A stretch of 64,000 nucleotides of DNA from Sneathiellales bacterium (GTDB lineage Bacteria > Pseudomonadota > Alphaproteobacteria > JANQFL01): contig JANQFL010000074.1 of assembly GCA_028277845.1 (NCBI GenBank), positions 40,758 to 104,757 on the forward strand, in the 5' to 3' direction. How positions within the stretch are numbered: the stretch's first letter is position 1; every line of letters begins with the position of its first letter. A program made the position numbers and the translations under genes. Under the pieces are notes generated by a model, which saw only the letters and a program-made list of their open reading frames with translations, was not told where the DNA came from and made no database searches. Below are positions 4,734 through 38,255 of the stretch, piece by piece.

Positions 4734-4976
4734 ATGTTCAAGGAAGTTCTCACCGCCGCCGCCGTCGCCGTCATGGCCAGTGCCGTCGCCGTACCGGGCG
4801 CGGTTGCCAGTTGTGCGCCCGCCAAGGCCTGTAACCCGTGTGCGGCGAAAAATCCGTGCGCCGCAAAAGCCGGCTGCAACCCGTGCGCAGCCAAAAACCC
4901 CTGCGCCGTAAAGAAGAAGTGCAATCCCTGCAATCCGTGCGCGGCGAAAAACCCCTGCGCCGCGAAAAAGTCGTAA
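4734..4976 (+). CDS. Secreted Cys-rich NPCAAK-repeat peptide (80 aa)
   Basis: GGAGG RBS at 4721-4725, ATG 4734, Sec-like signal ending AVA, then 11 Cys and 7 NPC units. Confidence 0.8.
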   Translation: MFKEVLTAAAVAVMASAVAVPGAVASCAPAKACNPCAAKNPCAAKAGCNPCAAKNPCAVKKKCNPCNPCAAKNPCAAKKS

Positions 4977-5013
4977 CGTCGGTGTGACGGACCGGCCGGT
5001 AACGGAACACCTC

Positions 5014-5481
5014 ATGACAAAGCGCTTGCTGCATATCGCTGTTTTGTGTTTTGGCGTGACCGTTTCCGTGCTGGCCGGGCCCGCATTGCCGGACGAAGCA
5101 ACGGTTATCCGCCTCACCCAGGCGGGGTGCCAGTTCATCGAACCCGAAGGGGAGAATCACGGTTTCCGGCCGGCCAACGCCACCGACTGCATCGACATCA
5201 ATACCCGGACGTCCAAACGCAGGCTGGCGGCCTCCGATGTGATGCGGTTGAAGCCGGGGGCTTACGTGTTTCGCGTTACCAACAGCAACGTGCCCTACGA
5301 CATCGGGTTTTATCTGCGCTCGGCCAGCGAAGTGCTGGTGCCGTTCAAGCCGAGCGTCATGGGCGGTGGTATCGCCACGGGCGGTTCGCGTGACTATACG
5401 GTGCGGCTGGAGGAAGGCGAATACGTCTTTTCCTGCCCGCTGAATCCCACACCCAACTATCGTTTGGTCGTCAAACAATAG
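5014..5481 (+). CDS. Exported cupredoxin-like-fold protein
   Basis: Signal peptide; LKPGAYVFRVTN and GEYVFSCPLNPTPNY resemble cupredoxin-type beta-sandwich ends. Confidence 0.6.
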   Translation: MTKRLLHIAVLCFGVTVSVLAGPALPDEATVIRLTQAGCQFIEPEGENHGFRPANATDCIDINTRTSKRRLAASDVMRLKPGAYVFRVTNSNVPYDIGFYLRSASEVLVPFKPSVMGGGIATGGSRDYTVRLEEGEYVFSCPLNPTPNYRLVVKQ

Positions 5482-5554
5482 TCTCCAGAAATCGGTTCCC
5501 GGAACCTTGCCGCGCTATGTTGCCTACGGCGAAATGCGTGTAGATTATGCCCTC

Positions 5555-6949
5555 ATGGAGGGCACGAACGGAAACCTGTTTCCCCTGCGCCGAAGCTTGT
5601 CGACGCGACTGTTGGTCTTGACGGTCGCGTTTGTCATGTTGAGCGAGGTACTCATCTATGTGCCGTCCATTGCGCGCTTTCGGCAGTCCTATCTCGACGA
5701 ACGCCTGGCCCAGGCCCACCTAGCGACACTGGCCATGCTGGCGGCGCCCAACAACGAGGTCAACGACGAGCTGGAGCGGGAGATGCTGTTCCGGGTGGGG
5801 GCGCGGGCGATCATTCTGAAACGGCCGGCCAGCCGCTTCCTCATGCTCAGCGACGACATGCCGGCCCGGATCGACGTGACGTTCGACATGCGCGATCCCA
5901 TGCCCATGGAATTGCTCATGCACACGTTCGATGCGCTGGTTCAGCCCGACGACCGTTTGATGCGTATCATCGGCGAGGTTTCCGGCGCGACGTCGACGAC
6001 GGTGGAAGTCATCTTGCCCGAAGCGCCGTTGCGTGAAGCCATGTTCGACTTCTCGTGGCGTATCCTGACCTTGTCGATCATCATCTCCCTGTTTACCGCC
6101 GGGCTGGTGTATCTCAGCCTGTCGTGGCTGATGGTCCGGCCCATGGCCCGGCTGACGGAAAGCATGATGCGTTTCCGTCAGCGTCCGGAAGACGCCTCGC
6201 GCATCGTACAACCCTCCGATCGCCAGGACGAAATCGGCCAGGCCCAACGGGAACTGGCGGTCATGCAGAGCGCGCTGCGTGATTCACTCCGGCAGAAGAC
6301 GCATCTGGCGGCACTCGGTACGGCGGTTTCCAAGATCAACCACGACCTGCGCAATATTCTGGCGGTGGCGCAACTGGTGTCGGACCGGTTCGTCGATAGC
6401 GCCGACCCCGAGGTGCGCCGGATTACGCCCAGGCTGTTGTCGAGCATCGACCGGGCCACCAGCCTGTGCGCCCGGACCTTGAAGTTCGGCCGGGCCGACG
6501 AGCCGGCGCCGGAAAAGACCCGTTTCGCATTGCGGCCGTTGATCGACGAGGTCGCGCTTGCCGTCGGCGGTACCGGCGACGACCATACGACCTGGACGAA
6601 CGACATCGCGGACGATGTCGAGGTCTTTGCCGATCACGACCAGCTCTTCCGGGTGTTCCTCAACCTGGGTCGCAATGCCGTGCAGGCCGCCGGTCCGGAG
6701 GTTCTCATCCGGGTGGTCTGCGAACCGTGCGAGGAGGGACTGGCTATTGACGTCATCGACAATGGTCCCGGCCTGCCGGAAGCCGCCAAACAGCATCTCT
6801 TCGAACCCTTCACCGGCAGCGCGCGGGCGGGCGGGACCGGGCTCGGACTGGTGATCGTCAAGGATTTGATCTCGGCCCACGGCGGAACCGTGGACGTCCG
6901 CTCCACCGGCCCCGAAGGCACTGTTTTCCGCGTGATTTTGCCCGCATAG
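5555..6949 (+). CDS. HAMP-domain sensor histidine kinase
   Basis: 2 TM, HAMP, H-box KINHDLRN, N-box NLGRNA, DNGPG, GGTGLGL; start uncertain (5507-5555). Confidence 0.9.
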   Translation: MEGTNGNLFPLRRSLSTRLLVLTVAFVMLSEVLIYVPSIARFRQSYLDERLAQAHLATLAMLAAPNNEVNDELEREMLFRVGARAIILKRPASRFLMLSDDMPARIDVTFDMRDPMPMELLMHTFDALVQPDDRLMRIIGEVSGATSTTVEVILPEAPLREAMFDFSWRILTLSIIISLFTAGLVYLSLSWLMVRPMARLTESMMRFRQRPEDASRIVQPSDRQDEIGQAQRELAVMQSALRDSLRQKTHLAALGTAVSKINHDLRNILAVAQLVSDRFVDSADPEVRRITPRLLSSIDRATSLCARTLKFGRADEPAPEKTRFALRPLIDEVALAVGGTGDDHTTWTNDIADDVEVFADHDQLFRVFLNLGRNAVQAAGPEVLIRVVCEPCEEGLAIDVIDNGPGLPEAAKQHLFEPFTGSARAGGTGLGLVIVKDLISAHGGTVDVRSTGPEGTVFRVILPA

Positions 6950-7543: not shown

Positions 7544-7610
7544 CCGCGATTCCATTTGCCAGTTTCCGTTGATCCGGGGATTCCGTCATTGACCGGAATA
7601 CTCTAAAACC

Positions 7611-8390
7611 ATGCCCATGGCATGGGATCCCAATCAATATCTGAAATTCGCCGGGTTGCGTTTGCGTCCGGCGTTGGACTTGCTGGCGCAAATTCCCTTG
7701 GAAGCGCCGCAAACGGTGTTCGATCTCGGCGCGGGCGCCGGCAACGTGACCCGCATTTTACAGGACCGCTGGCCGGATGCCGCCGTGACCGGCGTCGATT
7801 CCTCTCCCGAAATGTTCGAGAAGGCCCGCTCCGAACACCCCGACATCGGCTGGCGGTTGTCCGATCTGGCCGATTGGCGGCCGGATCAACCCGCGGATAT
7901 CATCTATTCCAATGCCGCCTTGCATTGGTTGTCCGACCACCGCGCGCTGTTCACCGCATTGATGGATAGCGTAGCGCCCGGCGGTGTCCTGGCCGTTCAG
8001 ATGCCGCGCAATTTTTCCGCTCCGTCCCACACCGCGATGGCCGACGCCGCCCGGGAAGGGCCTTGGCGGGACATTCTGGAGCCCTTGCTGCGGCCGGCGC
8101 CCGTGGCGGAACCGGACTATTACTACGATGTCCTCACCGCTGCAGGCGCGGACCCGGTGATTTGGGAAACCGAATACGTCCAGGTTCTGGAGGGAGACGA
8201 TCCGGTCAAGGAATGGACCAAGGGCACCTGGTTGCGGCCTTTGCTGGATGCCCTGGACGAACCGGACCGGTCCGTTTTCGAAGCAGCCTATGCCGCCAAG
8301 GTTCGCGCCGCTTATCCACGCCGGGATGACGGCGTCACTTTGTTTCCGTTCCGGCGGCTGTTTATCGTCGCAGCGAAACCGGATTCGTAA
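7611..8390 (+). CDS. tam: Trans-aconitate 2-methyltransferase
   Basis: WDPNQYLKF..R.RPALDLL, DLGAGAG, SNAALHW, LAVQMP, FPFRRLFIVA. Confidence 0.9.
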   Translation: MPMAWDPNQYLKFAGLRLRPALDLLAQIPLEAPQTVFDLGAGAGNVTRILQDRWPDAAVTGVDSSPEMFEKARSEHPDIGWRLSDLADWRPDQPADIIYSNAALHWLSDHRALFTALMDSVAPGGVLAVQMPRNFSAPSHTAMADAAREGPWRDILEPLLRPAPVAEPDYYYDVLTAAGADPVIWETEYVQVLEGDDPVKEWTKGTWLRPLLDALDEPDRSVFEAAYAAKVRAAYPRRDDGVTLFPFRRLFIVAAKPDS

Positions 8391-8461
8391 GACCGTCGCT
8401 TTTCCCGCCTTCCTCGGCGTGATAGATATGCATCTGGTTTTCCCAGCCGGGGGTGTGGTCC

Positions 8462-9106
8462 ATGGCGGCTAAAGTACTGACAATCGCGCAACAGAAAGGC
8501 GGAACCGGTAAGACGACGGTGGCCGCCCAACTGGCTGTTGCCTGGGCGGGCCGGGGGCGCAAGGTCGCTCTGATCGACCTCGACCCGCAGGAAAGCCTCA
8601 GTGCCTGGTTTTGGCTGCGGCGCGAGATGTACGGCGACGAAGCCGACAACATCGTTTTGCACAGCGCGTCCGCCGGCCGCACGGCCCTGTTGCTGGCACG
8701 GCTGAAGCCGGACCACGATATCGTCATCATCGACAGTCCGCCGCACACCCGGACCGAGGCGCAGGTGGCCATCGCCAAGGCCGACCTGGTCGTGACGCCC
8801 GTTCAGTTGAGTCCGATGGATCTCTGGGCGACGAAACCGACCCTGGAGCTGGCGGAGAAACAGAAGGTGGCGGCCATGCTGGTGCTTAACCGGGTGCCGC
8901 CGCGGGGCAACACGCCGGCCGCCGTCCGCGATGCCATCCGGCAGAAAAAGCTGCCGGTCGCCAGGGTATCCCTGGGGAATCGCCTGGCATTTGCCTCCAG
9001 CCTCATGGAGGGCCGCGGCGTGACGGAATCGGAGCCGTCGAGTTCCGCGTCCGCGGAAGTTCTGGCGCTGGCTTCGGAAATCTCCCGCCGTCTCAGCCGG
9101 GGCTGA
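8462..9106 (+). CDS. ParA/Soj-family ATPase (orphan)
   Basis: Deviant Walker A QQKGGTGKTT, DLDPQ, IIDSPP; no parB adjacent. Confidence 0.88.
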   Translation: MAAKVLTIAQQKGGTGKTTVAAQLAVAWAGRGRKVALIDLDPQESLSAWFWLRREMYGDEADNIVLHSASAGRTALLLARLKPDHDIVIIDSPPHTRTEAQVAIAKADLVVTPVQLSPMDLWATKPTLELAEKQKVAAMLVLNRVPPRGNTPAAVRDAIRQKKLPVARVSLGNRLAFASSLMEGRGVTESEPSSSASAEVLALASEISRRLSRG

Positions 9107-25039: not shown

Positions 25040-25339
25040 ATGTTGTCGATACCCTGCCCCTGGTGCGGACCGCGCGACGAAACCGAGTATTCCTACGGCG
25101 GCGAAGCCCACATCGTACGGCCGGAAGATCCCCAGGCTTTGAGCGACCGTGAATGGGCGGACTATCTGTTCATGCGCGCCAATACCAAGGGGGCGCACCG
25201 CGAACGTTGGGTTCACAGCCACGGCTGCCGCCGCTGGTTCAATGTGGAGCGCAACACCGCCACCAACGAAATCATCGCCGTCTACAAAATGGGGGAGTCG
25301 CCGCCCGGTGACGGTACCGGCGGGGACGGCGCGCCATGA
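25040..25339 (+). CDS. soxD: Sarcosine oxidase delta subunit
   Basis: MLSIPCPWCGPRDETEY...ERWVHSHGCRRWFN zinc motif. Confidence 0.95.
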   Translation: MLSIPCPWCGPRDETEYSYGGEAHIVRPEDPQALSDREWADYLFMRANTKGAHRERWVHSHGCRRWFNVERNTATNEIIAVYKMGESPPGDGTGGDGAP

Positions 25340-28300
25340 CACAGCGCCAGCGCTTGGCCAAGGGCGGCCGCATCGATCGCACCCGATTGTTGAGTTTCAC
25401 GTTCGACGGCCGGTCCTACAAGGGGTATGCCGGTGATACGCTGGCGTCGGCGTTGATGGCCAATGGCGTTTCGGTCCTGGGCCGCAGTTTCAAGTATCAC
25501 CGGCCGCGTGGGCTGTTCGGCGCCGGTGCGGAGGAACCGAACGCCATCGTGCAGTTGGAGGAAGGTCCGGACACCATCCCCAATCTGCGCGCGACGCAGG
25601 TCGAGCTCTACGACGGGCTGATGGCGTCGAGCGTCAACGCCTGGCCCGGGCTCGACTGGGACATCGGCGAAATCAACAGCCTGTTCTCGCGCGTTTTGCC
25701 GGCCGGTTTTTACTACAAGACCTTCATGTGGCCGGCCAGCTTCTGGATGAAATACGAGGAGGTGATCCGCCGTGCGGCCGGGCTGGGCCGCTGTCCGGAA
25801 CATCCCGATCCGGATACCTACGACAAGATGCACGCCCATTGCGACGTGCTCGTGGTCGGCGGCGGGCCGGCGGGCCTGATGGCGGCCCTGACCGCGGGGA
25901 AGGCGGGCGCCCGCGTCATCCTGGCCGACGAACAAACCGAATTCGGTGGCGCGCTGCTGGACCGCCGGAATGCGATCGACGGCAAACCCGCGGCGGACTG
26001 GGTTGCGGCCGCCGTCGCGGAACTTGAGGCCATGGAGGACGTCCGGCTTCTACCCCGCACCCACGCCGCGGGGTATTACGAACATAATTTTTTGACCCTA
26101 CTCGAGCGCAAGACCGACCATTTGCATCCAGTGGCACGGCGTCGGACACCCGGCCCGCGGCAACGCCTGTGGAAGGTCCGGGCGGCGCAGGTGGTGCTGG
26201 CCACCGGTGCCATCGAACGGCCTCTGGTGTTCGCCGACAACGACCGGCCGGGTGTGATGCTGGCGTCGGCGGCCCAAACCTATGTCAACCGCTACGGCGT
26301 CAAGCCGGGGTCGCGGGCCGTCGTGTTCACCAACAACGATTCCGCCTACGCCGCCGCCATGGATTTGCACGACGGCGGTGTCGACATCGCCGCCGTCGTC
26401 GACCTGCGCGAAAACCCCGGTGGCGCCCTGGTGACCGAAGCCCGCGGCAAGGGCATTACCGTTTTGGACGGTCGTGCCGTCGTCGCCACCGAAGGCCGCA
26501 AGCGCGTTCAGGCGGTCGATGTCGCGCCCCTGAGCGCCGACGGCCGTGTCGCGGAAGGCGCGCACCGCCGGTTCGAATGCGATCTGGTGCTGGTCTCCGG
26601 CGGCTGGAATCCGGCGGTTCATCTGTTCAGCCACGCCGGCGGCAAGTTGTCGTTCGAACCGGATCGCGCCCAGTTCCTGCCCGGTACGACACCCTTGCCA
26701 TGCCGTGCCGCCGGATCTGCCAGCGGCGACATTCAACTGGCGCAGTGTCTGGCCAACGGACAAAAGGCCGGCGAAGTCGCCGCGGCGGCAAACGGGTTCC
26801 GCAGGCGGGGGCGCCTGCCCGGCATTCCGCAATGTGACGATGTGGCCGAAGGGCCGATGCGGCATGTCTGGCAGGTGCCGGGCCGAAAACCGGCGGCGCA
26901 ACTGAAGCAGTTTGTCGATCTGCAACATGACGTCACGGCAGCGGACGTGCACCTGGCCGCCCGGGAAGGCTATGAGTCGGTCGAACACTTGAAGCGTTAC
27001 ACGACACTCGGCATGGGGACCGACCAGGGTAAGACCGCCAACATCAATGGCCTGGCCATCATGGCGGAAACGCTCGGACGCGATATTCCCGGCGTCGGGA
27101 CCACGACCTTCCGGCCACCCTACACACCGGTCACGCTCGGCGCCATGGCCGGCCGGGATGTCGGCGCGTTGGCCGACCCGGTACGGCGTACGCCGATGCA
27201 TCACTGGCACGAGACCGCCGGCGCGTTGTTCGAGGATGTCGGCCAGTGGAAACGGCCCTGGTATTACCCCAAACAGGGCGAATCCATGCAGGACGCCGTG
27301 GATCGGGAGTGTTTGGCCACCCGGAACGCCATCGGCGTGCTCGACGCGACGACTCTCGGCAAGATCGACATTCAGGGACCGGATGCCGCCGAACTGCTCA
27401 ATCGTGTCTATACCAACGCCTGGAGCAAACTGGCGGTCGGGCGTTGCCGTTACGGGTTGATGCTGGGCGAAGACGGCATGGTCATGGACGACGGCGTGAC
27501 CACATGTCTTGGCGAAAATCACTATCTGATGACAACGACCACCGGCAACGCCGCCCGGGTGATGGGCTGGCTCGAGGAATGGCTGCAGACGGAATGGCCC
27601 GATCTCAAGGTCTACCTCAACTCGGTCAGTGAATATTGGGCCACGATCGCCATTGCCGGCCCCTTCGCCCGGGAACTGTTGGCGGAGTTGACGGACGATA
27701 TCGACGTCGCGAACGAAGCCTTCCCCTTCATGTCGCTGCGCTCGGGAACAGTGGCGGGCATCCCGGCCCGGGTTTTCCGTATCAGCTTCACGGGCGAAGT
27801 CAGTTTCGAGATCAATGTGCCGTCGACCTACGGGCTGGCCATGTGGAACGCGGTGATGATGGCCGGGGAGAAATACGGCATCACACCGTTCGGCACCGAA
27901 ACCATGCACGTACTGCGCGCCGAGAAGGGCTACATCATCGTCGGCCAGGACACCGACGGGACGATCACGCCCGGCGATCTGGGCATGGACTGGATCGTGT
28001 CGAAAAAGAAACCCGATTTCATCGGCAAACGCAGTCTGAGCCGGCAGGATACGGCGCGGTCCGACCGCAAGCAGCTGGTCGGTTTGTTGACGGAAAATCC
28101 GTCCGAAGTCCTGCCGGAAGGCGGTCAGATCGTCGCGATCGTCAAGGACAGCCCGCCCATGGATATGATCGGCCACGTCACGTCCAGCTATTACAGCGCC
28201 AATCTCGGGCGGTCCATTGCCCTGGCATTGGTCAAGGGGGGGCATGACCGTCTTGGGAAGTCGGTCTATGTGCCTTTGGAAGGGCGAACGGTAAAGGCGA

Positions 28301-28353
28301 AGGTGTCCAAGACGGTGTTTTTCGATCCGGAAGGAGAACGGCTCAATGGTTGA
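25336..28353 (+). CDS. soxA: Sarcosine oxidase alpha subunit
   Basis: GDTLASAL, RSFKYHRPRG, GFYYKTFM, KRYTTLGMGTDQGK, GcvT-like C-terminus. Confidence 0.96.
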   Translation: MTQRQRLAKGGRIDRTRLLSFTFDGRSYKGYAGDTLASALMANGVSVLGRSFKYHRPRGLFGAGAEEPNAIVQLEEGPDTIPNLRATQVELYDGLMASSVNAWPGLDWDIGEINSLFSRVLPAGFYYKTFMWPASFWMKYEEVIRRAAGLGRCPEHPDPDTYDKMHAHCDVLVVGGGPAGLMAALTAGKAGARVILADEQTEFGGALLDRRNAIDGKPAADWVAAAVAELEAMEDVRLLPRTHAAGYYEHNFLTLLERKTDHLHPVARRRTPGPRQRLWKVRAAQVVLATGAIERPLVFADNDRPGVMLASAAQTYVNRYGVKPGSRAVVFTNNDSAYAAAMDLHDGGVDIAAVVDLRENPGGALVTEARGKGITVLDGRAVVATEGRKRVQAVDVAPLSADGRVAEGAHRRFECDLVLVSGGWNPAVHLFSHAGGKLSFEPDRAQFLPGTTPLPCRAAGSASGDIQLAQCLANGQKAGEVAAAANGFRRRGRLPGIPQCDDVAEGPMRHVWQVPGRKPAAQLKQFVDLQHDVTAADVHLAAREGYESVEHLKRYTTLGMGTDQGKTANINGLAIMAETLGRDIPGVGTTTFRPPYTPVTLGAMAGRDVGALADPVRRTPMHHWHETAGALFEDVGQWKRPWYYPKQGESMQDAVDRECLATRNAIGVLDATTLGKIDIQGPDAAELLNRVYTNAWSKLAVGRCRYGLMLGEDGMVMDDGVTTCLGENHYLMTTTTGNAARVMGWLEEWLQTEWPDLKVYLNSVSEYWATIAIAGPFARELLAELTDDIDVANEAFPFMSLRSGTVAGIPARVFRISFTGEVSFEINVPSTYGLAMWNAVMMAGEKYGITPFGTETMHVLRAEKGYIIVGQDTDGTITPGDLGMDWIVSKKKPDFIGKRSLSRQDTARSDRKQLVGLLTENPSEVLPEGGQIVAIVKDSPPMDMIGHVTSSYYSANLGRSIALALVKGGHDRLGKSVYVPLEGRTVKAKVSKTVFFDPEGERLNG

Positions 28354-28960
28354 TCCCTATCTCCGGCAAAGCCCGTTGGCGCATATGCACCTGAATACCC
28401 GCCCGGTGTCGACGGACGCCACGGTTTGGCTCAGGGAAGAGCCGTTCCGCACCCAAATTGTTCTGCGCGGAAACGCCGACAAAAAGCCGTTTCGCGATAG
28501 CGTGGAATCTGCCGTGGGCTGTGCCTTGCCCCGGGAACCCAATTCGGTGACCGGGCCGACCGACTTGAACGACGGCACGCGCATCCTGTGGCTCGGCCCG
28601 GACGAATGGCTTCTGGTCGCGCCGGTCGGCAACGAGCAACAACTGATGGAGACGCTGGCCGATACGCTCACGAAATTCCACGCCGCCGCGGTGGATGTCA
28701 GTGAAAGCCGCACGGTCCTTTCCGTCGGCGGGCCGAGCGCATCCGAGGCCCTGGCCAAGGGGTGCAGTCTGGATCTCCACCCCCGGTCCTTCGCGACGGG
28801 GCAGTGCGCCCAGTCGGAAATCGCGCGCGCGCACGCCATATACCACAAAGTCGGCGAAGACCCCGTTTTCGAGCTCTACATCCATCGCAGCTACGCCGAA
28901 TACGTTTGGATGTGGCTCGAAGATGCAACCGGAGAGTATGTCCCGGTGGCCGAGGGATAA
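28346..28960 (+). CDS. soxG: Sarcosine oxidase gamma subunit
   Basis: LWLGPDEW, VDVS, LAKGCSLDLHP, RSYAEY; operon position. Confidence 0.93.
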   Translation: MVDPYLRQSPLAHMHLNTRPVSTDATVWLREEPFRTQIVLRGNADKKPFRDSVESAVGCALPREPNSVTGPTDLNDGTRILWLGPDEWLLVAPVGNEQQLMETLADTLTKFHAAAVDVSESRTVLSVGGPSASEALAKGCSLDLHPRSFATGQCAQSEIARAHAIYHKVGEDPVFELYIHRSYAEYVWMWLEDATGEYVPVAEG

Positions 28961-29117: not shown

Positions 29118-30500
29118 ATGTCGGACGAATCGAGGGACCTGATCGATCGGCAGATAACCGCCGAATTGGTGGATATGGCGTTTCGCGGAACCGGGCTCAG
29201 CCTGCTGGTCGAGCCGGTCGCCGTCGGTGCCATGGCCGTGCTGTTCTACAACTCCGTACATCCCCAGGGGTTGGCGATCTGGGTTTCCCTGGTTCTCAGC
29301 GCAACCGCGTTTCGCGCCATCCTCTGGCACCGGTTTCACGGTTCCTCGCCGGAAGTTCGAAGCCAGGCCCGTTGGGGGCAAATTCTCGCGGTATCCATGT
29401 TGGTGTCCGGATTTGTCTGGGGCGGCGCCACGGTGCTGGTCTGGCCCGGCGGCTCGTTGACCGGCCAACTCGCCCTGTTCGGCATCGTCAGTATGGCGAC
29501 GATCGGGATGTGCGGCTTGGTCACCGGCTACATTCCGGCGGCCAATGCGTTTCTGGGCGCCCTGCTGATCGTCGTTGTGCCGGTCATGATTACGAAGCAG
29601 GACGTCACCTACTACGTCACGGTGGCGTTTGCCCTGGTCTATGCGTTGATGCTGCTGGCCATCGCCCATCACATCAGAAATTTGCTGCGCCGGTCGGCGG
29701 AACTGCGTGTCGATCTGTCGGACGCCCGCGATGCGGCCCAGGCGGCCAACCACACCAAGTCCGAGTTCATTGCCAATATGAGCCACGAACTGCGGACGCC
29801 GCTCAACGCCATCATCGGGTTTTCCGAGATCATCCAGCAGCAGACCTTCGGTCCGATCGAAAATGACCGCTACAAGGATTACATCGACGACATCCTGAAT
29901 AGCGGCCGTCACCTGCTCGGAATTGTCACCGAAATCCTCGATCTGTCGAAGATCGAGGCCGGCAAGATGGATCTCAACGAACAGGAATGCAATGTGGCCG
30001 GCCTGGTTGACGGGTGCATCACGTTCCTGCGCCAGAAAGCCGACGAAGCGGGCGTCATGGTGGTCAACGAGCTGCCGCCTCATGCGCCGTCCATTGTCGG
30101 CGATGAACGGGCGCTCAAGCAGATCGTCATCAATCTTCTGTCCAATGCCATCAAATTCACGCCGATCGGGGGCGAGGTACGCATTCGGCTCGACCCCTCT
30201 TCAACCGGCGGCATCAGTTTGAAAATCCGCGATACGGGGATCGGCATCGCCCCGGAGGACATCAAGAAGGTGATGGATCCCTTCGGTCAGGTGGAAAACG
30301 CCTATTCACGCCAGCATGAAGGCACCGGCCTCGGACTGCCGCTGGTCAAGGCGATGACCGAAATGCATCATGGGACTTTCCATCTGACGAGCGAAGTCGA
30401 CCTGGGAACGGAAGCGATCGTCGAGTTTCCCGAGGATCGCGTGATCGGAGCGTTCGATTACGCACCGCTGCAGTCAGAGGTTGTTTCGGTCCCGCACTAG
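29118..30500 (+). CDS. Multi-TM sensor histidine kinase (PleC/DivJ-like kinase core)
   Basis: About 6 TM; [41 protein letters not shown]. Confidence 0.92.
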
Positions 30501-30743: not shown

Positions 30744-32000
30744 ATGCCGGACAAGACCGCCGCGCCGCATCGTGGACGGCCGTCGGCGTCGCCGAGATGG
30801 GGTGAAATTCCGTCTCTGACGCGGCGAATCGATCAATTGTGGGTGGATCATCTGTATCCGCCCGTCGTCGTCGGCAGCACGCCCGGCCCGGACGCGCTTC
30901 TCCTCAGCAGCAACGACTATCTGGCGCTCTCCCACGACCGGCGCATTATCGACGCGCAAGTTCAGTCGTTGCGTGGCGCCGACAATGAACTGTTCATGTC
31001 GGGGGTGTATGCCCAGTATCTCGACTATCAGCGCGCCTTCGAGTTGGATATCGGAGAGCAGTTGGGGGCGGAAGATGTCGCGTTGTGCCAATCGGGATAC
31101 GCAGCCAACGAAGGTCTGATCCAGGTTCTCGCCGATGCCGATACACCCGTATATATCGACATGCAGGCGCATGCCTCGCTCTGGCAGGGGGCGCAGAACA
31201 CCGGCGCGCCGGTCTATCCGGTGCGCCACAACAACGCGCAGCATCTACGCACGCTGACCCGGAAGTATGGGCCGGGTGTCGTCTGCGTCGACGCCATCTA
31301 CAGCACTGTCGGCAGTATCTGCAATCTCGGCGACATCATCGACGTTTGCGAGGATAGCGGATCCATCCTGGTGGTCGATGAATCCCACTCCATCGGTGTT
31401 GTCGGCGAATTCGGTGAAGGGCTGGTCAGTTCCCTCGGCCTGGAAGACCGTGTGCCGTATCGCACATTCAGCCTGTCCAAGGCCCTAGTCGGCCGCGCCG
31501 GTATCGTGATGGGGCCGAAGCGGGTGATGGAATTCTTCCGCGGGGATTCCCGGCCGGCGATCTTCAGTTCCGCCGTCATGGGGTGGGAGATTGCCCGCTT
31601 TACGAAAACCTGGGACATCGTGCGGGACGAGAACTGGCGGCGCAAGGTGCTCTGGGACAATGCCCGGTATTTGAGCGACGGGCTCGATGCCCTGGGTTAT
31701 AACATGGACCTGACCGAAACGCCGATCATTCCGATTGAAGCGGGATCGGAAAACGCCACCAAATTGCTGCGCGATACCCTGGAACGGGCCGGCATATTCG
31801 GCGCGGTCTTCTCCGGCCCGGCGACGCCGGCGAACCGCTGCATCGTCCGTTTCTGCGTCAATGCGGCCCACACAAAGGAAGACCTCGACCGGGTGATCGA
31901 GGTCTGCGACCAGGTGCGTGACGACGTGGGTATGGCGAACTGGGCGTCCACCCGCCGCCGCAAAGGCCGGGCGCAGAACGTCGTTTCATTGAAGCCCTGA
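30744..32000 (+). CDS. cqsA: Alpha-hydroxyketone autoinducer synthase, CqsA/LqsA-like (PLP, AONS fold)
   Basis: SNDYLAL, LFMSGVY, QSGYAANEGLIQ, YIDMQAHASLWQG, YGPGVVCVDAIYST, VDESHS, SLSK (PLP Lys), PAIFSS, FGAVF..PAT: a motif series characteristic of CqsA rather than BioF. Confidence 0.88.
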   Translation: MPDKTAAPHRGRPSASPRWGEIPSLTRRIDQLWVDHLYPPVVVGSTPGPDALLLSSNDYLALSHDRRIIDAQVQSLRGADNELFMSGVYAQYLDYQRAFELDIGEQLGAEDVALCQSGYAANEGLIQVLADADTPVYIDMQAHASLWQGAQNTGAPVYPVRHNNAQHLRTLTRKYGPGVVCVDAIYSTVGSICNLGDIIDVCEDSGSILVVDESHSIGVVGEFGEGLVSSLGLEDRVPYRTFSLSKALVGRAGIVMGPKRVMEFFRGDSRPAIFSSAVMGWEIARFTKTWDIVRDENWRRKVLWDNARYLSDGLDALGYNMDLTETPIIPIEAGSENATKLLRDTLERAGIFGAVFSGPATPANRCIVRFCVNAAHTKEDLDRVIEVCDQVRDDVGMANWASTRRRKGRAQNVVSLKP

Positions 32001-32047
32001 ATTTCGCGCCGGTCTGAACGGCGTACCGCCCACTTTCCGGCCGCTGC

Positions 32048-33412
32048 TCAGCCGTGCGGTTGATCCGGCATCACCGGCAACATGATGATGACTTCCGTGA
32101 ATTCGCCGGGTTCCGAACGGGCGGAAATCGTGCCGCCGAATCGGTCGATGACGGCGGCGCAGAAGCGCAATCCCGATCCGGCGCCCTCCGGCGTGGTCAC
32201 ATGGTTGCCGTAGGTTTCGAACAGGCGGGACACCACCTGCTTGGGCATGCCGACCCCCTGGTCGCGGATCTTGATCACATTGCCCTGGGGTGTGGCGGCG
32301 ACTTCGAAAAGCACCTTGCCGGTCCCTTTCAGGGAGACGGCCTGAAGGGCGTTCTTCGTCAGGTTCAGCAGGACGTGGGTCATGAGATTGACCGAGCCGT
32401 TGAACATGAAGTCGTTGTCCTTGCGCCAGGTGATGCGGGCCCGTTCCCGGTCTGATTTGAAGGGGTAGCGCCGCAATGCCTCGTTGATGCAGTGACTGAT
32501 GGAGCACGGCCCGAGTTCGATGGAATGCAGGGGGAACTCGCCGGCGTTCATTTGCATCATGCTGACGACCGCCAGCGTGTGTTCGATTTCCGTTTCGATC
32601 TGTTGCGGCACGTCGCCGACGGCCTTGAGATGATTGGCATCCAGGTCCACCACGTCCAGGCCGGCGTGCTGGGCCTTGCCGTAGGCGTCGATCAGTTGCG
32701 GCAGGAAATGGCGCAGGCTGACGCTGCCGCGCTTGATCATCTGCAACGGCGGTCGGAGTTCCTTCGACAGGCTGTTCGCCGCGGCGGTCACCGCGCGCAT
32801 GCGTTCCTGCCGGATCATGCCGGCCTTGTAGTTGAACACCATGCCGCCAAGTACCAGAAACACCAGAACCGGGAAGTATTCGAAATAGAACTCGGTCTGC
32901 ATGCCCTCGGGCACGGTCACCGCGAAGACGCCCAGCGCGGCGGCCGATCCGACAACGTACAGAACCAGCAAATGAAACCAGTCGACCAACAGGATAAGGA
33001 AGAAGATCGCCGCCATCACCGACAACAGCCAGACGAACGAGGCGCCGTTCATCAGCATCATGTAGGTGAAAAAGAACGGCACGCTGTAAAGACACACGAA
33101 CAGGTAATAGACCCGCGTATAGCGGCGCAGCGACTCCGGCCATCGGTTGCGCAGCGCGAGTATCAGGCACAAGGCGGCGCCGATGGCTCGCAACAACAGG
33201 CTTTCGTACGGCTGCGGGAACAGAACGTCCCAGACGAGCCAGTACACCAGAAACGCGATCGCCGCGAACAGGCCGACGAAAGTCAGGTTGGGTTCGACGT
33301 ACGTGAAATTCTGCTGACCGAGCGCGCGGACGTAGGCCGCCGCTTTCGCCAAGCGGTGTAAACCGTGTTTATCGGAGTTCGCTCCACCGTTGAGAGCACG
33401 GTCTTGGTACAC
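32048..33412 (-). CDS. cqsS: CqsS/LqsS-like membrane sensor, H-box His replaced by Lys, no receiver domain
   Basis: YVEPNLTFVG...W..LFPQPYESLLLR and PFFFTYMMLMN..S.VWLLS typical of the CqsS/LqsS sensing domain; H-box reads SKELRPPL; HATPase N/G1/F/G2 boxes present. Confidence 0.85.
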   Translation of the reverse strand: MYQDRALNGGANSDKHGLHRLAKAAAYVRALGQQNFTYVEPNLTFVGLFAAIAFLVYWLVWDVLFPQPYESLLLRAIGAALCLILALRNRWPESLRRYTRVYYLFVCLYSVPFFFTYMMLMNGASFVWLLSVMAAIFFLILLVDWFHLLVLYVVGSAAALGVFAVTVPEGMQTEFYFEYFPVLVFLVLGGMVFNYKAGMIRQERMRAVTAAANSLSKELRPPLQMIKRGSVSLRHFLPQLIDAYGKAQHAGLDVVDLDANHLKAVGDVPQQIETEIEHTLAVVSMMQMNAGEFPLHSIELGPCSISHCINEALRRYPFKSDRERARITWRKDNDFMFNGSVNLMTHVLLNLTKNALQAVSLKGTGKVLFEVAATPQGNVIKIRDQGVGMPKQVVSRLFETYGNHVTTPEGAGSGLRFCAAVIDRFGGTISARSEPGEFTEVIIMLPVMPDQPHG

Positions 33413-33648: not shown

Positions 33649-33975
33649 GTGGATCGAGTACGCGAAGCCATCTGCACCGCAGCGTCCGATTTGGGCGAGG
33701 ATTTCAGGACGATTTCGGAACGAATCGGCCTGGAGACGGCCTATCTCGAGCGATTTATCGAGCAGGGATCGCCGACCGCCTTGCCGCGGGACATCGGCCG
33801 GCGACTGGCCGGTGAGCTCGGCCTTCCCGCCGGTGTGCTCGAGCCGCCAAGGGGCGTGCCTTATTCGGCGGAGCGCAGCCATTCCGCTGCTCCGCCCGAC
33901 CTGACGGTTGTCGCCGGCGGAAATCCCACCCGGTCAACTCCCCTTCATACACGGCCCCGGTCGGCCGCATCGTAG
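33649..33975 (+). CDS. Small HTH protein resembling the N-terminal domain of alphaproteobacterial S24/phage-repressor-like regulators
   Basis: ISERIGLETAYLERFIEQGSPTALP...RRLAGELGL; no peptidase domain. Confidence 0.55.
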   Translation: MDRVREAICTAASDLGEDFRTISERIGLETAYLERFIEQGSPTALPRDIGRRLAGELGLPAGVLEPPRGVPYSAERSHSAAPPDLTVVAGGNPTRSTPLHTRPRSAAS

Positions 33976-33997: not shown

Positions 33998-35548
33998 CTA
34001 ATGGCTGGCGTCCGGCATGCTGGCTTTCTTGGCATCGATGAACGCGTTGAGCGCCTCGTCAAGGGCCGGGTCCAGATCCGGCGCCTCGTAGCGCGCCAGC
34101 ATGTCCTTCCATAGCCCGTTGGCCCGTTGCGCCGCATCCCGGCTGCCTTCGGCTTCCCATTGTTCCACCGAATTGTTGTCGGCCACGGGAGAACGGTAGA
34201 ACGCGGTCTCGAAATGGGCCTGGGTGTGGCCGCAACCGAGGAAGTGATTGCCCGGCCCCACTTCGCGGATGGCGTCCATGGCCTGGCCGTCGTCGCTCAG
34301 ATCGACGCCCTTGGCCAGCACCTGCATCATGGCGCATTGGTCCGCGTCCATGACGAATTTCTCGTATGACGCCGCCAGGCCGCCCTCCAGCCAGCCGGCC
34401 GCATGCAGCACGAAATTGACCCCGGCCATCAGGGTCGGCAACAGCGTCTGGGCGCTCTCATAGGCCGCCTGGGCGTCGGGCACCTTGGAGCCGCAGAGCG
34501 AGCCGCCGGAGCGGAACGGCACGCCAAGGCGCCGCGCCAGTTGCGCCGCGCCGTACAGCACCAGGGCCGGTTCCGGCGTACCGAAGGTGGGCGCGCCCGA
34601 CTGCATGGAAATCGAGCTGGCGAAGGTGCCGAACACGACCGGCGCGCCCGGCCGCACCAGTTGGGTCACGGCCATGCCGGCCATGGCCTCGGCCAGGATC
34701 TGGGCCAGGGTGCCGGCCACGGTGACCGGGCTCATGGCACCGGACAGGATGAACGGCGACACCACGCAGGCCTGGTTGGCCCGGGCGTAGGCCTTCAAGG
34801 CGCCGAGCATGGTGGCGTCGAAGACCATCGGCGAATTGGCGTTGATCAGATTGACGACCACGCAGTTGGCGTCGACGAAATCGGCGCCGAACAGGATGCG
34901 GCACATCTCCACCGTGTCCTCGGCCCGCAAAGGGTGAGTGACCGAGCCCATGAACGGTTTGTCGCTCAGCCGCATGTGGCTGTAGACCATGTCCAGGTGG
35001 CGCTTGTTCACCGGCAGATCGACCGGCTCGCACACCGTGCCGCCGGAATGATGCAGGCCGGGGCTGAGATAGGCCAGTTTGACGAAGTTCCGGAAGTCCT
35101 CGATGGTCGCGTAGCGCCGCCCTTCATCGAGATTACGGATAAACGGCGGGCCGTAGACCGGCGCGAACACCGTATTGTTGCCGCCGATCTCCACGTTGCG
35201 GGCCGGGTTGCGGGCATGCTGGGTGAACTGTTTCGGTGCGGTGGCCAACAGCGTCCGCGCCAGGCCGCGCGGGATGTGCACCCGCTCGCCCCGCACGTCG
35301 GCGCCGGCGTTGCGCCACAATTCCAGCGCCTCGTCATCTTCCCGGAAATCGATACCGATCTCTTCCAGAATGGTTTCGGCGTTGTACTCGATGGTTTCGA
35401 GGCCATCGTCGCTCAACACCTCGGTCAGCGGGATCTGCCGGCTGATGTAGGGAGCCTGCTGCTCCACCGGGGCCGCCCGCGCCGCCCGCCGGGCCTCGCG
35501 CCCGCCGCCTGCCCGCCGGCCGCGCCGGCCGGTCTGTTCCTGCGCCAT
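33998..35548 (-). CDS. mttB: Trimethylamine methyltransferase family (MttB-like, non-pyrrolysine; probable glycine betaine:corrinoid methyltransferase)
   Basis: HARNP, APVYGPPF, GGTVCEPVD, SDKPFMG, SGAPTFGTPE, HAAGWLEGG; no in-frame amber. Confidence 0.92.
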   Translation of the reverse strand: MAQEQTGRRGRRAGGGREARRAARAAPVEQQAPYISRQIPLTEVLSDDGLETIEYNAETILEEIGIDFREDDEALELWRNAGADVRGERVHIPRGLARTLLATAPKQFTQHARNPARNVEIGGNNTVFAPVYGPPFIRNLDEGRRYATIEDFRNFVKLAYLSPGLHHSGGTVCEPVDLPVNKRHLDMVYSHMRLSDKPFMGSVTHPLRAEDTVEMCRILFGADFVDANCVVVNLINANSPMVFDATMLGALKAYARANQACVVSPFILSGAMSPVTVAGTLAQILAEAMAGMAVTQLVRPGAPVVFGTFASSISMQSGAPTFGTPEPALVLYGAAQLARRLGVPFRSGGSLCGSKVPDAQAAYESAQTLLPTLMAGVNFVLHAAGWLEGGLAASYEKFVMDADQCAMMQVLAKGVDLSDDGQAMDAIREVGPGNHFLGCGHTQAHFETAFYRSPVADNNSVEQWEAEGSRDAAQRANGLWKDMLARYEAPDLDPALDEALNAFIDAKKASMPDASH

Positions 35549-35687
35549 GTCGTCTACTCGTCTGATTAGGATCGTTGCCGTTCGATCCAGTGTACGCCAG
35601 TCACCCGTGCCGCCGACTTGCGCGGGTCCGTCCCGTTGTGGCTTGCGCGCGCCCTCCCGTCGGATGTTGGATGCGGCCGTGCCTATC

Positions 35688-38255
35688 CTACGATTTCATG
35701 CGCCCATTGGTCGGGTCGTAGAGCGGTTTGTAACCGACGGCCTCGACCTGGACCGGGAACTTTTGATTGAAGTATTCGATCTCGAGCTGGCGGCCCTCTT
35801 CGCAGTAATCCTGCGGCAGGTAGCCGAGCGCGATGTTCTTGCCGAGTGACGGACCGTAGGCCAGGCTGGTGGTGTAGGAGCGCCGGCCAAGCGCGTCGAT
35901 CAGCACCTCGTCGGACTTGGGATCGACGATGGGACAGTTGCCCATGGGGTAGCGCGCCACGCCGTCCTTGTCGGTATTGTCCGTGACCGTGAGCGTACAA
36001 AGCATCGCCGGCTGGTGCGGCCGTTCGCGCTGCGCGACATAGGCCGCCTTGCCGTGGAAATCGGCGGTCTTGACCTTCGGGCGGGCGAGACCGGCCTCGA
36101 CCAGATTGTACTCGGTCAGAAGGTCCGCGTTCTGTAGCCGCAGGCTTTTCTCCAGCCGGCGGCTGTTGGCGTAGGTCTCGATGCCGATCGGGGTGATGCC
36201 GGCTTCAAGGAACATGTCCCACAAGGCCAGGCCGTAGCTCAACGGGAAGTGCAGTTCCCAGCCCTGCTCGCCGACATAGGAAATGCGGAAGCCTTTCACC
36301 GGCACGCCGCGCAGGGTGAAGTCCCGGCTGGCCGCGAAGGGGAAGTTTTCCGGGTCCAGTCCGGCCGGGTCGTCGGCCAGCGTCTTCAGGCGCTCGCGGG
36401 CGTTCGGCCCCCAGACGCCGATGCAGCCGTAGTGATCGGTGCGGTCCTCGACGAACACCGACCATTCCTTGTCCTGCACCATACGGCGCAGGTAGGTCAT
36501 GTCGCGATGGCCGGCGTCGGCGCCGTCGATGACGCGGAAGCGGTCCTCGGCAAGCCGCAGCACGGTCAGGTCCGCCTGCACGCCGCCGGCGGCGTCGAGG
36601 AAATTGGTGTAGACCCCCTTGCCGACCGGCGTATCGCCCGCGACCTTCGAGGACGACACATACTCCATCAGCCGTTCCGCGTCGCGGCCCGAAACGTCGT
36701 AAATGGTGAAGTGGGACAGGTTGATCATGCCGACGTTTTCCGACAGCTCCAGATGCTCTGCGTTGGAGACGCGCCAGAAATGGCGGTTGTCCCATTCGTT
36801 CTCGCGCACCGGCACGCGGTCGGCGTATTTGGCCAGCAGCGTCTCTTCGTTGGACGCGTAGCCGTGCGCCCGTTCCCAGCCGGCGATGTCCATGAAGTAG
36901 CCGCCCAGTTCCCGCTCGCGCAGATAGAACGGGCTGCACCGCAGGTTCCGGCCCTTGGAGTAGGGCTCGCGGTTGTGGACGGGCGGATTGTAGATCTTGA
37001 ACGCCGTCTCGTAGCAGCGGTCGTAAATGAAGGGCTCGGTCTTCTGGACGGGGTAGTAGCGGGCGTAATCGATGGCATGATGATCGAACTCGGTGCGCCC
37101 GTCGGTCATCCAGTCGGCGATCACCTTGCCCGTGCCCGGGCCGTCCTTGATCCAGACCGACACGCCGTACCACAGGCCGCGCACGTCCGGCGACTCGCCG
37201 ATGGACGGCCCGCCGTCGGCGGTCACCTGAAGCAACCCGTTGAAGGAGTGCTTCTCGTTGTAGCCCAGCTCGCCGAGGATCGGCGTCAGTTCCATGGCGC
37301 GTTCCAGGGGTTCCATGATCTGTTCCATTTCCAGATCGCGCTGGGAGGGCGAGAGGCGGGCCTCCTCTTTTTCCAGCAGGTCGCGCGGATGCACGAGGCG
37401 GGGCGCCTTCTCCTCGTAGTAACCCCATTCGATCTGACCGCCCTCGGCGGTTTTCGGATCACCGGTGTCGCGCAGATAGGCGGAGTTGCCCTGGTCGCGC
37501 AGCAGCGGATAACCGATTTCCTTGCCGGTACCCGCGAATTCGTTGTAGGGCCCGAAGAAGGTCAGCGGATGGTCGACCGGCATGACGGGCAGGTCCTCGC
37601 CCGCCATCGCCGCGATCAGGCGGCCCCACAGGCCGGCGCAGACGACGACGTAACTCGTCTCGATGTAACCGCGCGACGTGTGGACGCCCTTGATGCGACC
37701 GTTCGCGATGTCGAGGCCGGTGCACGGCGTGTTGGCGATGACTTCCAGCTTGCCGGTTTCCTCGGCGTCGCGGATCATTTCTCCGGCGACCACCTGGGAG
37801 CGCGGGATGACCAGGCCCGCGTCCGGATCCCACAGCGCGCCCTGGATGAGGTCTTCCTCGATGATCGGTAACAGTTCCTTCACCCGCTTCGGCGTGATCA
37901 GTTCGACCCGGTTGCCGAAGGCGCGGCCGGAGCTGACCCGGCGTTCGAGTTCGCGCATGCGCTCGTCGTCGCCCTTGCGGGCGACCTCGATGCCGCCGAT
38001 GCGGGAATAGCGGCCGCGCTTCTCAAAAAAGTCGATGCTGTATCTGGTCGTGAAGATCGTCATCTGGTCGTGCATCGTGTTGAAGCAGAAATCCGACGCA
38101 TGGCCGGTCGAGCCGATGTCGGTGGGAACACCTGATTTGTCGATCCCGATGATGTTGTCCCAACCCCGCTCGATCAGGTGGTGGGCAACCGAGGCCCCGA
38201 CGATGCCGCCCTGTCCGATGATCACGACGTTCGCGCTTTTCTGGAACTGCGCCAT
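35688..38255 (-). CDS. FAD-dependent oxidoreductase-GcvT fusion (dimethylglycine oxidase/dehydrogenase-like)
   Basis: GQGGIVG, GSTGHASDF, LRDQ, GWER, RISYVGEQGWELH, RLEKS, YDP. Confidence 0.88.
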   Translation of the reverse strand: MAQFQKSANVVIIGQGGIVGASVAHHLIERGWDNIIGIDKSGVPTDIGSTGHASDFCFNTMHDQMTIFTTRYSIDFFEKRGRYSRIGGIEVARKGDDERMRELERRVSSGRAFGNRVELITPKRVKELLPIIEEDLIQGALWDPDAGLVIPRSQVVAGEMIRDAEETGKLEVIANTPCTGLDIANGRIKGVHTSRGYIETSYVVVCAGLWGRLIAAMAGEDLPVMPVDHPLTFFGPYNEFAGTGKEIGYPLLRDQGNSAYLRDTGDPKTAEGGQIEWGYYEEKAPRLVHPRDLLEKEEARLSPSQRDLEMEQIMEPLERAMELTPILGELGYNEKHSFNGLLQVTADGGPSIGESPDVRGLWYGVSVWIKDGPGTGKVIADWMTDGRTEFDHHAIDYARYYPVQKTEPFIYDRCYETAFKIYNPPVHNREPYSKGRNLRCSPFYLRERELGGYFMDIAGWERAHGYASNEETLLAKYADRVPVRENEWDNRHFWRVSNAEHLELSENVGMINLSHFTIYDVSGRDAERLMEYVSSSKVAGDTPVGKGVYTNFLDAAGGVQADLTVLRLAEDRFRVIDGADAGHRDMTYLRRMVQDKEWSVFVEDRTDHYGCIGVWGPNARERLKTLADDPAGLDPENFPFAASRDFTLRGVPVKGFRISYVGEQGWELHFPLSYGLALWDMFLEAGITPIGIETYANSRRLEKSLRLQNADLLTEYNLVEAGLARPKVKTADFHGKAAYVAQRERPHQPAMLCTLTVTDNTDKDGVARYPMGNCPIVDPKSDEVLIDALGRRSYTTSLAYGPSLGKNIALGYLPQDYCEEGRQLEIEYFNQKFPVQVEAVGYKPLYDPTNGRMKS

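Follow-up and report, generated by a model that had tools for sequence, protein, structure and literature searches.

The receptor gene and its neighbours

The window analysed here, a stretch of 64,000 nucleotides from a Sneathiellales bacterium (taxon labels of metagenome bins are used as deposited), carries a gene for an LqsS/CqsS-type receptor of α-hydroxyketone (AHK) autoinducers in which the phospho-acceptor histidine is missing. The gene lies on the minus strand at 32048..33412 (stop codon included) and forms an open reading frame (ORF) of 454 amino acids with a GTG start, the position of which is matched by the Met start of the orthologue P0003. Convergent with it, at 30744..32000 on the plus strand, is a cqsA/lqsA-type AHK autoinducer synthase gene (NCBIfam NF005526, 455.3 bits against a curated cut-off of 428; Pfam Aminotran_1_2); the two stop codons are 47 bases apart, and the receptor is thus genetically linked to a CqsA/LqsA-type synthase. 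On the other side of the synthase gene, at 29118..30500 on the plus strand, lies an intact membrane histidine kinase, here called HK2 (HisKA 74 bits, HATPase_c 101.8 bits), which we propose as the catalytic partner of the receptor.

The receptor, all of it encoded on the minus strand, falls into three parts. A six-helix membrane sensor domain (32813..33301, approximately residues 38-200) was indicated by a hydropathy scan with about six segments and by an AlphaFold2 model built from the clade alignment described below (predicted local distance difference test score 79.9), the helices of this part spanning residues 16-64, 72-90, 99-121, 126-142, 145-166 and 173 onwards. It is followed by a hairpin resembling a domain for dimerization and histidine phosphotransfer (DHp), with the degenerate H-box SKELRPPL (32543..32812, approximately residues 201-290; model helices 173-249 and 259-289, together with the H-box alignment), and by a catalytic and ATP-binding (CA; HATPase_c) domain (32072..32515, approximately residues 300-447), which was placed by Pfam and by a motif table and keeps the N, G1, F and G2 boxes. 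The last membrane helix of the model continues directly into the long DHp helix that bears Lys217, the residue at the acceptor position, and the CA domain has an alpha/beta fold, with an ATP-lid (residues 400-412) of low model confidence. When the model was searched with Foldseek, the top solved structures were the histidine-kinase cores of ZraS, HK853, WalK and DivL (4q20), with E values of about 1e-10. As modelled, the receptor has a histidine-kinase fold composed of a DHp hairpin and a Bergerat-type CA domain.

The homologous six-helix sensor domain of the LqsS/CqsS family is present in the receptor, and W61, P66, Q67, E70, R75, F114, F115, M118, N122 and W128 within it are at least 90% conserved across the His-bearing and His-less members. 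An exhaustive HMMER search found 580 representatives similar to the receptor over its full length at E <= 1e-30, and P0026 of Legionella massiliensis, named CqsS in its source, is 34% identical to it at 95% coverage (E 8.8e-74). Pfam recognized HATPase_c (PF02518) alone, at residues 343-447 with 63.2 bits, and found neither a HisKA nor a receiver domain in the receptor. It should be noted that the missing HisKA hit is not diagnostic, as PF00512 is annotated in just 6 of the 32 relatives listed first, among which are His-bearing ones. That the receptor has no receiver domain had been presented as an oddity in a first-pass annotation of the window; the absence itself holds in Pfam, but it represents ordinary LqsS-type architecture and no anomaly, the relatives from a word-indexed search being proteins of 428-481 amino acids with a separate regulator.

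HK2 also appears to be embedded in the membrane by its N-terminal part, with about six hydrophobic segments at residues 25-183 in a hydropathy scan, and its catalytic residues (H223, N339/N343, D372xGxG376 and G402TGLGL407) are invariant in nine aligned orthologues. Its input domain lies wholly within the membrane and could be assigned to no named family: Pfam gave a weak, sub-cut-off match to DUF6611, and a protein atlas placed the domain with unnamed clusters at 0.95-0.97 and with MASE-type families at just 0.86-0.87, a lead only. We considered whether receptor and HK2 have homologous membrane domains and rejected this (hhalign probability 0.1%).

Loss of the acceptor histidine and the His-less clade

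Residues 211-223 of the receptor read AANSLSKELRPPL, in which the H-box is SKELRPPL and residue 217 is Lys, encoded by an AAG codon at 32762..32764 on the minus strand. We aligned 179 sequences, comprising the query, 31 relatives from the word-indexed search and 147 representatives from the exhaustive HMMER search, and found His in the acceptor column of 152 and another residue in 27 (K7, R7, Q4, N3, D2, S1, G1, A1 and Y1). Because the H-E-x-R-T-P flank is near-invariant in the 152 His-bearing relatives (E in all 152, R in 147, T in 143 and N in 5, P in 151), Lys217 can be assigned to the phospho-acceptor position without ambiguity, and the H-box His expected of an autokinase of the LqsS/CqsS family is therefore Lys217 in this protein. 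The AAG codon is two substitutions away from both CAT and CAC. Moreover, two orthologues from independent assemblies (P0003 from ENA and P0004 from Logan, 83-84% identical to the receptor) both read SKELRPPL, a contig of 4348 nt from run X1, possibly the source, has 0 differences over 29942-34000, and a contig of 151 nt and depth 2 from run X2, which belongs to a different study, is identical over 32751-32901, Lys codon included. Sequencing error as the origin of Lys217 is excluded. Over the receptor gene, the comparison with sequence runs returned identical contigs only and no diverged relative.

The ATP-binding boxes of the receptor were located at residues 350-356 (NLTKNAL), 384-388 (DQGVG) and 410-415 (GAGSGL). 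All seven scored positions that are conserved in at least 151 of the 152 His-bearing relatives are kept (N350, N354, D384, G388, G412, G414 and L415), as is an eighth, G386, which is G in merely 128/152 of them. The first-pass annotation had claimed that Lys replaces the H-box His, that a codon two substitutions from His makes a single sequencing error unlikely, that the frame is intact with its ATP-binding boxes largely kept, and that the protein is a pseudokinase unable to autophosphorylate conventionally. The first three points are confirmed by the alignment, the codon, the two orthologues and the second-study contig, and the open frame of 454 amino acids in which every scored residue is retained; the fourth gains support at the level of sequence, and from the fact that the loss of His defines a whole conserved clade.

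This clade, evidently an old one, emerged from two phylogenies. After removal of four short rows with more than 20% gaps (P0015, P0027, P0064 and P0180, all non-His), a FastTree analysis of 175 sequences placed 19 of the 23 remaining non-His sequences, the receptor among them, in one clade without any His-bearing member, with a Shimodaira-Hasegawa (SH)-like support of 0.907. An IQ-TREE analysis (LG+G4, 1000 ultrafast bootstrap replicates) of 50 sequences, namely the 19 clade members and 31 His-bearing receptors chosen from neighbouring and outlying branches, recovered the identical 19-member clade with an ultrafast bootstrap of 72. Hence, the loss of His is conserved in orthologues, from the Lys of P0003 and P0004 to a clade in which K, R, Q, D, N, S or A occupies the acceptor position. 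A single origin of the His loss in this clade is indicated by the moderately supported tree, with which the independent evidence of gene context agrees. The proteins of the clade are deposited as 'sensor histidine kinase' or 'CqsS kinase/phosphatase', and JGI calls several relatives in the clade 'CqsS'; as regards activity, the kinase labels are probably wrong. Apart from the clade, four isolated losses (P0153, P0079, P0163 and P0105, with Q, N, Q and Y, respectively) are nested among His-bearing receptors, and the ATP boxes of these four look mostly intact.

The distribution of constraint over the protein is inverted in the clade, where the sensor and not the CA domain is best conserved. Mean pairwise identity among the His-less members (171 pairs) was 0.48 for the transmembrane (TM) part, 0.34 for DHp and 0.33 for CA, as against 0.30, 0.31 and 0.41 among the His-bearing receptors (11476 pairs), and at matched TM identity the CA identity was 9-20 points lower in the clade. 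The catalytic positions tell the same story: in the His-bearing receptors the acceptor His, the following E, N350, N354, G388, G412 and G414 are each found in 152/152 and D384 in 151/152, whereas the clade retains His in 0/19, N354 in 7/19, N350 in 10/19, G388 in 10/19 and G412 in 13/19. The residue four positions after the acceptor, Thr or Asn in 148/152 His-bearing relatives, is Thr in three of the 19 clade members and Pro221 in the receptor, while E218 is retained in 17/19. The receptor and its nearest relatives (P0003, P0004 and P0005) stand at the conservative end of this series of decay, having lost only His and Thr and kept all scored ATP-binding residues. Across the clade 22 columns are invariant, 17 of them within the sensor domain (Y57, W61, P66, Q67, E70, R75, C82, F113, F114, F115, M118, W128, W145, G155, P181, F185 and F193), and many of these reach at least 90% conservation in the His-bearing relatives too; the DHp part contributes P222 and P238 only. 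The motifs of the first three membrane helices are described as the common AHK-binding region in the available part of a review by Tiaden and Hilbi (PMC3376566).

Some members have dispensed entirely with the CA domain. The His-less receptor of three congeneric genomes (G057, G358 and G229) is an ORF of 297-307 amino acids that consists of sensor and DHp only, with Arg at the His position. On a single strand with an HK2 orthologue (G358, locus L128, 6656..9076; G057, locus L101; G229, locus L103), it begins 4 bases past the stop codon of that orthologue in G358, where it spans 8183..9076 of L128, and within about 225 bases of it in the other two. In a codon-level comparison of the three genomes, the ratio of nonsynonymous to synonymous substitution rates (dN/dS) was 0.10, 0.15 and 0.20 for the CA-less receptors and 0.12, 0.15 and 0.17 for the adjacent HK2 orthologues. 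Two further short forms from other branches (P0064 and P0027) end after the DHp part, where a frameshift in a metagenomic contig is possible. The CA domain is thus dispensable within the clade, while the DHp hairpin is kept even in the CA-less forms.

The clade is maintained by selection, as shown by its 19 intact members (the receptor and 18 further full-length proteins that are 28-84% identical to it), by the 22 invariant columns and by the dN/dS of 0.10-0.20 in the three congeneric genomes with CA-less forms. We consider it highly probable that the receptor is a non-autophosphorylating, selectively maintained member of a clade of His-less receptors. Phylogenetically it is a derived LqsS/CqsS-family member; by mechanism it falls in the class of pseudokinases, a status assigned here from sequence.

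Gene context of His-bearing and His-less receptors

We compared 84 loci, of which 80 came from GTDB species representatives, 2 from metagenomes and 2 from a class-level genome search; 78 encode a His-bearing and 6 a His-less receptor. The metagenome scan, made with P0001, gave three loci at 41%, 31% and 23% identity, and the class-level search yielded a match at E <= 1e-30 in 3 of 61 genomes, one of them the window's own, the nearest members to the window's genome in the collection sharing class level with it at best. Among the His-bearing loci, 76 of 78 have a gene for an LqsR-like protein of about 340 amino acids at most 90 bases downstream on the same strand, resembling the gene that follows the Nitrococcus receptor, and in the two exceptions the contig ends 76 and 7 bases past the receptor. 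Pfam detected a receiver domain at approximately residues 82-160 in the three LqsR-like proteins tested, which fits the description of LqsR in the available part of PMC3376566. A cqsA homologue lies convergent after the receptor locus in 65/78 His-bearing loci, and a full-length HK2-like gene was found in 0/78.

At the His-less loci this arrangement is replaced by another. An LqsR-like gene was found in 0/6, and full-length HK2 orthologues, 38-44% identical with the membrane domain included, are present in five of the six (L028, L079, L087, L091 and L013); in the sixth, L060, the contig ends 253 bases beyond cqsA and is not assessable for HK2. With the two further genomes of the L013 genus added, an HK2 orthologue accompanies the receptor in 8/8 assessable His-less loci outside the window. 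The synthase gene adjoins the receptor in 5/6 His-less loci. The order HK2, cqsA, convergent receptor is shared by the window, L079, L087 and L091, and it recurs in L028 with an inserted second, transporter-fused synthase gene; in G229, HK2 and then the receptor lie on one strand with cqsA convergent to the pair; and in G358, HK2 and the receptor occur without cqsA in the 16 kb examined, so that this organism may be a listener without a signal of its own. A pair of genes kept together through such rearrangements is a classical signature of functional coupling. Gene context thus switches together with the loss of His, and the actual anomaly alongside that loss is the loss of the LqsR-type regulator gene. 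In the window's genome (98.5% complete), a single LqsR-type query gave no match and no second CqsS-like sensor domain was found; as a cognate phospho-acceptor partner of the receptor, neither an adjacent LqsR-type gene nor a fused receiver domain was seen.

The genes that flank the three-gene module vary by locus (LolA-like, AMP-binding enzyme, amidase/ABC fusion, luciferase-like monooxygenase, CopD), and across the His-less loci compared no other neighbour, for instance a regulator close to HK2, turned out to be conserved. The window's module sits within a region of methylated-amine catabolism (25336..28960 and 33998..38255), with the alpha (GCV_T, SO_alpha_A3) and gamma (SoxG) subunits of sarcosine oxidase on one flank and an MttB-family methyltransferase (809 bits) and a dimethylglycine-dehydrogenase-like DAO/GCV_T protein on the other. 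These flanks are not conserved at other His-less loci, which suggests that the three genes travel together as one unit. Upstream of the receptor, a gap of 585 bases holds an ORF of 108 amino acids (33649..33975, plus strand) that has no Pfam match and contains a stretch that resembles a helix-turn-helix by eye.

Other arrangements of kinases and synthases were encountered. Four His-bearing Rhodocyclales/Sulfuritalea loci (L018, L030, L032 and L042) have an extra kinase core just past cqsA (about 12000-12970 or 8264-8980, plus strand) that is 35-38% identical to the core of HK2 only, without an N-terminal match; extra kinases near cqsA are therefore not limited to the His-less clade. The transporter-fused synthase gene of L028 (1953..5540, minus strand) is an ORF of 1194 amino acids in which an MMPL/RND-like transporter domain is joined to a CqsA-like aminotransferase 47% identical to the CqsA of the window; it is placed between the receptor and the second, ordinary cqsA and could be a synthase-exporter fusion. 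The window's genome contains, on contig C93, a second AHK synthase gene (L012, 6157..7425, minus strand; NF005526, 489 bits), divergent from a membrane histidine kinase of 460 amino acids (7598..8980, plus strand) and convergent with a PAS-PAS-HisKA-HATPase-REC hybrid kinase (4091..6136, plus strand); the locus (L012 4091..8980, also L129) has no CqsS-like receptor. In hhalign comparisons, the membrane domain of the 460-amino-acid kinase showed no profile similarity to either the CqsS sensor or HK2 (probability 0.1-0.2%). A cqsA homologue also adjoins the two nearest orthologues of this kinase in other genomes (G187, 66% identity; G319, 46%), making 3/3, while three more distant matches have no such neighbour, and the kinase may represent a separate AHK-linked kinase family.

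Output of a receptor without an acceptor histidine

On balance, we favour the view that the receptor is a ligand-sensing LqsS/CqsS-family pseudokinase that acts as an AHK-binding co-sensor for HK2, and that HK2 is its output is likewise somewhat more probable than its opposite. According to this proposal, the receptor would bind the AHK made by the adjacent synthase, as conservation of the sensor domain and linkage to the synthase suggest, and would relay the signal by contact instead of phosphotransfer, its membrane and/or DHp helices shifting the balance of HK2 between kinase and phosphatase. HK2 would then phosphorylate an unlinked response regulator, and the AHK receptor would in effect be split into a sensing subunit, the receptor, and a catalytic subunit, HK2. 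The ATP pocket retained in the window's receptor could be structural, regulatory or simply not yet decayed. Direct-contact control of HK2 is the most economical account because the sensor is the most constrained part of the receptor, the DHp hairpin is never lost, and neither is the intact kinase partner. The suggestion in the first-pass annotation that the receptor works on or through a partner kinase has gained from the neighbourhood data (an HK2 orthologue in all eight other assessable His-less loci against none of 78 His-bearing ones), while the CckA/ChpT link that it mentioned finds no support. It had further likened the receptor to DivL and foreseen a new transduction mode for AHK signals; allostery stays as the general model, but there is a closer precedent.

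That precedent is RocA of group A Streptococcus, a six-TM pseudokinase with a DHp part and a degenerate CA domain that interacts with the kinase CovS in the membrane; its predicted His is dispensable and a CA-less form still complements, according to the available part of PMC7028121. RocA-CovS is the closest working analogy to the receptor and HK2, although the sensor of RocA is non-homologous and has no known ligand, and its His is present though dispensable; RocA is also a single lineage-specific protein, whereas the receptor is part of a clade tied to a quorum-signal synthase. Two looser analogies are RetS-GacS and DivL. RetS of Pseudomonas aeruginosa is a sensor-kinase-like protein that directly controls another kinase, GacS (PMC5992135, available part), but it retains HExxT and receiver domains and uses phosphotransfer and phosphatase routes, features the receptor lacks. 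DivL of Caulobacter has, as far as the available part of PMC4211667 goes, a histidine-kinase fold without the acceptor His and acts as an allosteric regulator of another kinase; it is, however, a cytoplasmic PAS-domain cell-cycle protein that senses a phospho-regulator and not a membrane ligand receptor, and its sequence kinship with the receptor is limited to the kinase core.

LqsS and LqsT of Legionella and the wider LqsS-type receptors (the lqsA-lqsR-lqsS clusters of Nitrococcus, Burkholderia and Polaromonas) share with the receptor the six-helix sensor, the receiver-less layout of DHp and CA, the length and the adjacency to an AHK synthase (PMC3376566, available part), whereas the window's receptor has no acceptor His, no HExxT Thr and no adjacent LqsR-type gene and has an unrelated intact membrane kinase as its conserved neighbour. 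Vibrio CqsS, a hybrid kinase feeding LuxU/LuxO, has a homologous AHK sensor domain and linkage to cqsA; it possesses His194 and a C-terminal receiver domain with D618 (same part of PMC3376566), and the receptor has neither. Outside bacteria, the subfamily 2 ethylene receptors of plants pair a degenerate histidine-kinase domain with a conserved, membrane-located domain for ligand binding, and they signal via complexes with other proteins. They differ from the window's receptor in being eukaryotic, with an unrelated sensor domain and different partners.

An alternative that dispenses with HK2, in which the receptor buffers or sequesters AHK, aids its export or uptake or regulates the synthase, and the adjacency of HK2 reflects co-regulation only, is in our judgement unlikely, if the strongest of the competitors. 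It would suit a protein whose sensor domain is its most conserved part and whose gene adjoins that of the synthase at five of six His-less loci, and the MMPL-transporter/CqsA-like fusion between receptor and cqsA in L028 hints at links to AHK transport. The persistence of the DHp hairpin in CA-less forms, however, points to a role in signalling or dimerization, and G358 keeps HK2 and the receptor 4 bases apart without cqsA in 16 kb, so that the conserved pair there is receptor and kinase.

Almost level with it, and marginally less likely, is an ATP-dependent trans-kinase: the CA domain of the receptor would bind ATP and phosphorylate His223 of HK2, or another kinase, in a hetero-oligomer. Kinase dimers are known to trans-autophosphorylate, HK2 is conserved as a neighbour, and the receptor, P0003, P0004 and P0005 keep N350, N354, D384, G386, G388, G412 and G414. 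Most clade members, though, now lack either the Mg/ATP-binding Asn or the Gly boxes (N354 survives in 7/19 only), and several are CA-less yet under purifying selection; trans-kinase activity cannot therefore be the function that holds the clade together. HK2 moreover has a complete CA domain of its own, and receptor and HK2 show weak BLAST similarity (residues 222-446, about 20% identity), which speaks against a heterodimer formed through DHp.

We regard a dedicated phosphatase, which would dephosphorylate a response regulator or the receiver domain of another kinase in response to AHK, as improbable, and the phosphatase mode that the first-pass annotation had offered is to that extent disfavoured. 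Phosphatase activity independent of the His is known in some HisKA kinases, with RetS acting as a transmitter phosphatase on GacS, and E218 is retained in 17/19 clade members; the same source, in its available part, states that the HExxT Thr is required for transmitter phosphatase activity (PMC5992135). Where the HisKA motif for this activity is HExxT/N, the receptor reads K-E-L-R-P, the Thr being Pro221, and Thr is seen in 3/19 of the clade against T/N in 148/152 His-bearing relatives. No receiver-domain gene is linked to the receptor.

Two further readings are very improbable. Degenerate catalytic motifs across the clade might mark a functionless receptor on its way to a pseudogene, or an annotation artefact, but the frame is intact in the receptor and the 18 full-length members, 22 columns are invariant, dN/dS stays at 0.10-0.20 in the only group of close relatives compared at the DNA level, and the neighbourhood is conserved. 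Another His, an Asp, Ser or Tyr might instead be phosphorylated in a receptor that is still a kinase, given the intact CA domain, the four His of its DHp region (His235, His248, His259 and His277) and the Tyr that DivL reportedly bears at the His position; none of these four is conserved across the clade, however, and His259, present in about 12/19 by eye and also in some His-bearing relatives, falls in the inter-helix segment of the model. An alternative conserved DHp His as acceptor was sought in the clade alignment and rejected, as none was found.

Several observations weigh against the proposal that the receptor is a co-sensor for HK2. Support for the clade is moderate (0.907 SH-like, 72 ultrafast bootstrap), the dN/dS values cover only the three congeneric genomes with CA-less forms, and the His-less loci with context are few, 8 besides the window, of which 3 are congeneric, giving about six independent lineages. 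The receptor, P0003, P0004 and P0005 retain every scored ATP-binding residue, which a purely allosteric role would not need. The link between receptor and HK2 rests on gene neighbourhood, and kinases of the HK2 type also exist outside this pairing. The best match to HK2 in the class sample (G080:C294, 42% identity) lies on a 3.8-kb contig that carries neither cqsA nor a CqsS-like gene, and a search of the assembly, which is 79% complete, revealed no CqsS-like gene either; full-length HK2 paralogues occur elsewhere, including in the window's genome at C8:26335-27567. Furthermore, a terminator-like hairpin with a T-rich tail (30572-30587, plus strand) lies 72 bases after the HK2 stop codon, so that HK2 and cqsA need not be co-transcribed; this is a GC-rich consensus match only, one of 9 such sites in the region against 4.2 expected. 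A complex prediction for full-length receptor and HK2 scored 0.01 (mark 0.32) in a run without controls and is counted neither way.

A literature search, with supplementary alignments outside its scope, found no description of His-less CqsS/LqsS homologues or of their link to a second kinase and no paper on CqsS as a pseudokinase, and the available parts of PMC8023197 and PMC10653808 do not mention His-less receptors. More tentatively, and with slightly less than an even chance of being right, we propose that the His-less receptors and HK2 jointly constitute a quorum-signal receptor of two proteins, in which a dedicated, catalytically dead subunit binds AHK and gates a distinct membrane kinase with a six-helix domain of no known family; AHK signals would thereby have a new output route. 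If so, the phosphotransfer pair of LqsS and LqsR would have been replaced once, early in the clade, before the new arrangement spread over several alphaproteobacterial and other lineages; the receptor would be the first known quorum-sensing receptor operating as a pseudokinase, and the CA-less forms, consisting of sensor and DHp, would be the minimal functional unit.

AHK quorum sensing has been understood through two wirings, from CqsS to LuxU/LuxO in Vibrio and from LqsS/LqsT to LqsR in Legionella, both of which begin with autophosphorylation of the receptor. The locus in the window points to a third, with a non-phosphorylatable receptor and a neighbouring kinase as its likely output. The clade to which the receptor belongs may also be viewed as a natural series that leads from sensor kinase to pseudokinase, in which His was lost first, followed by the phosphatase Thr, the ATP boxes and eventually the whole CA domain, while across the series the ligand-binding domain is more constrained than in the active relatives.

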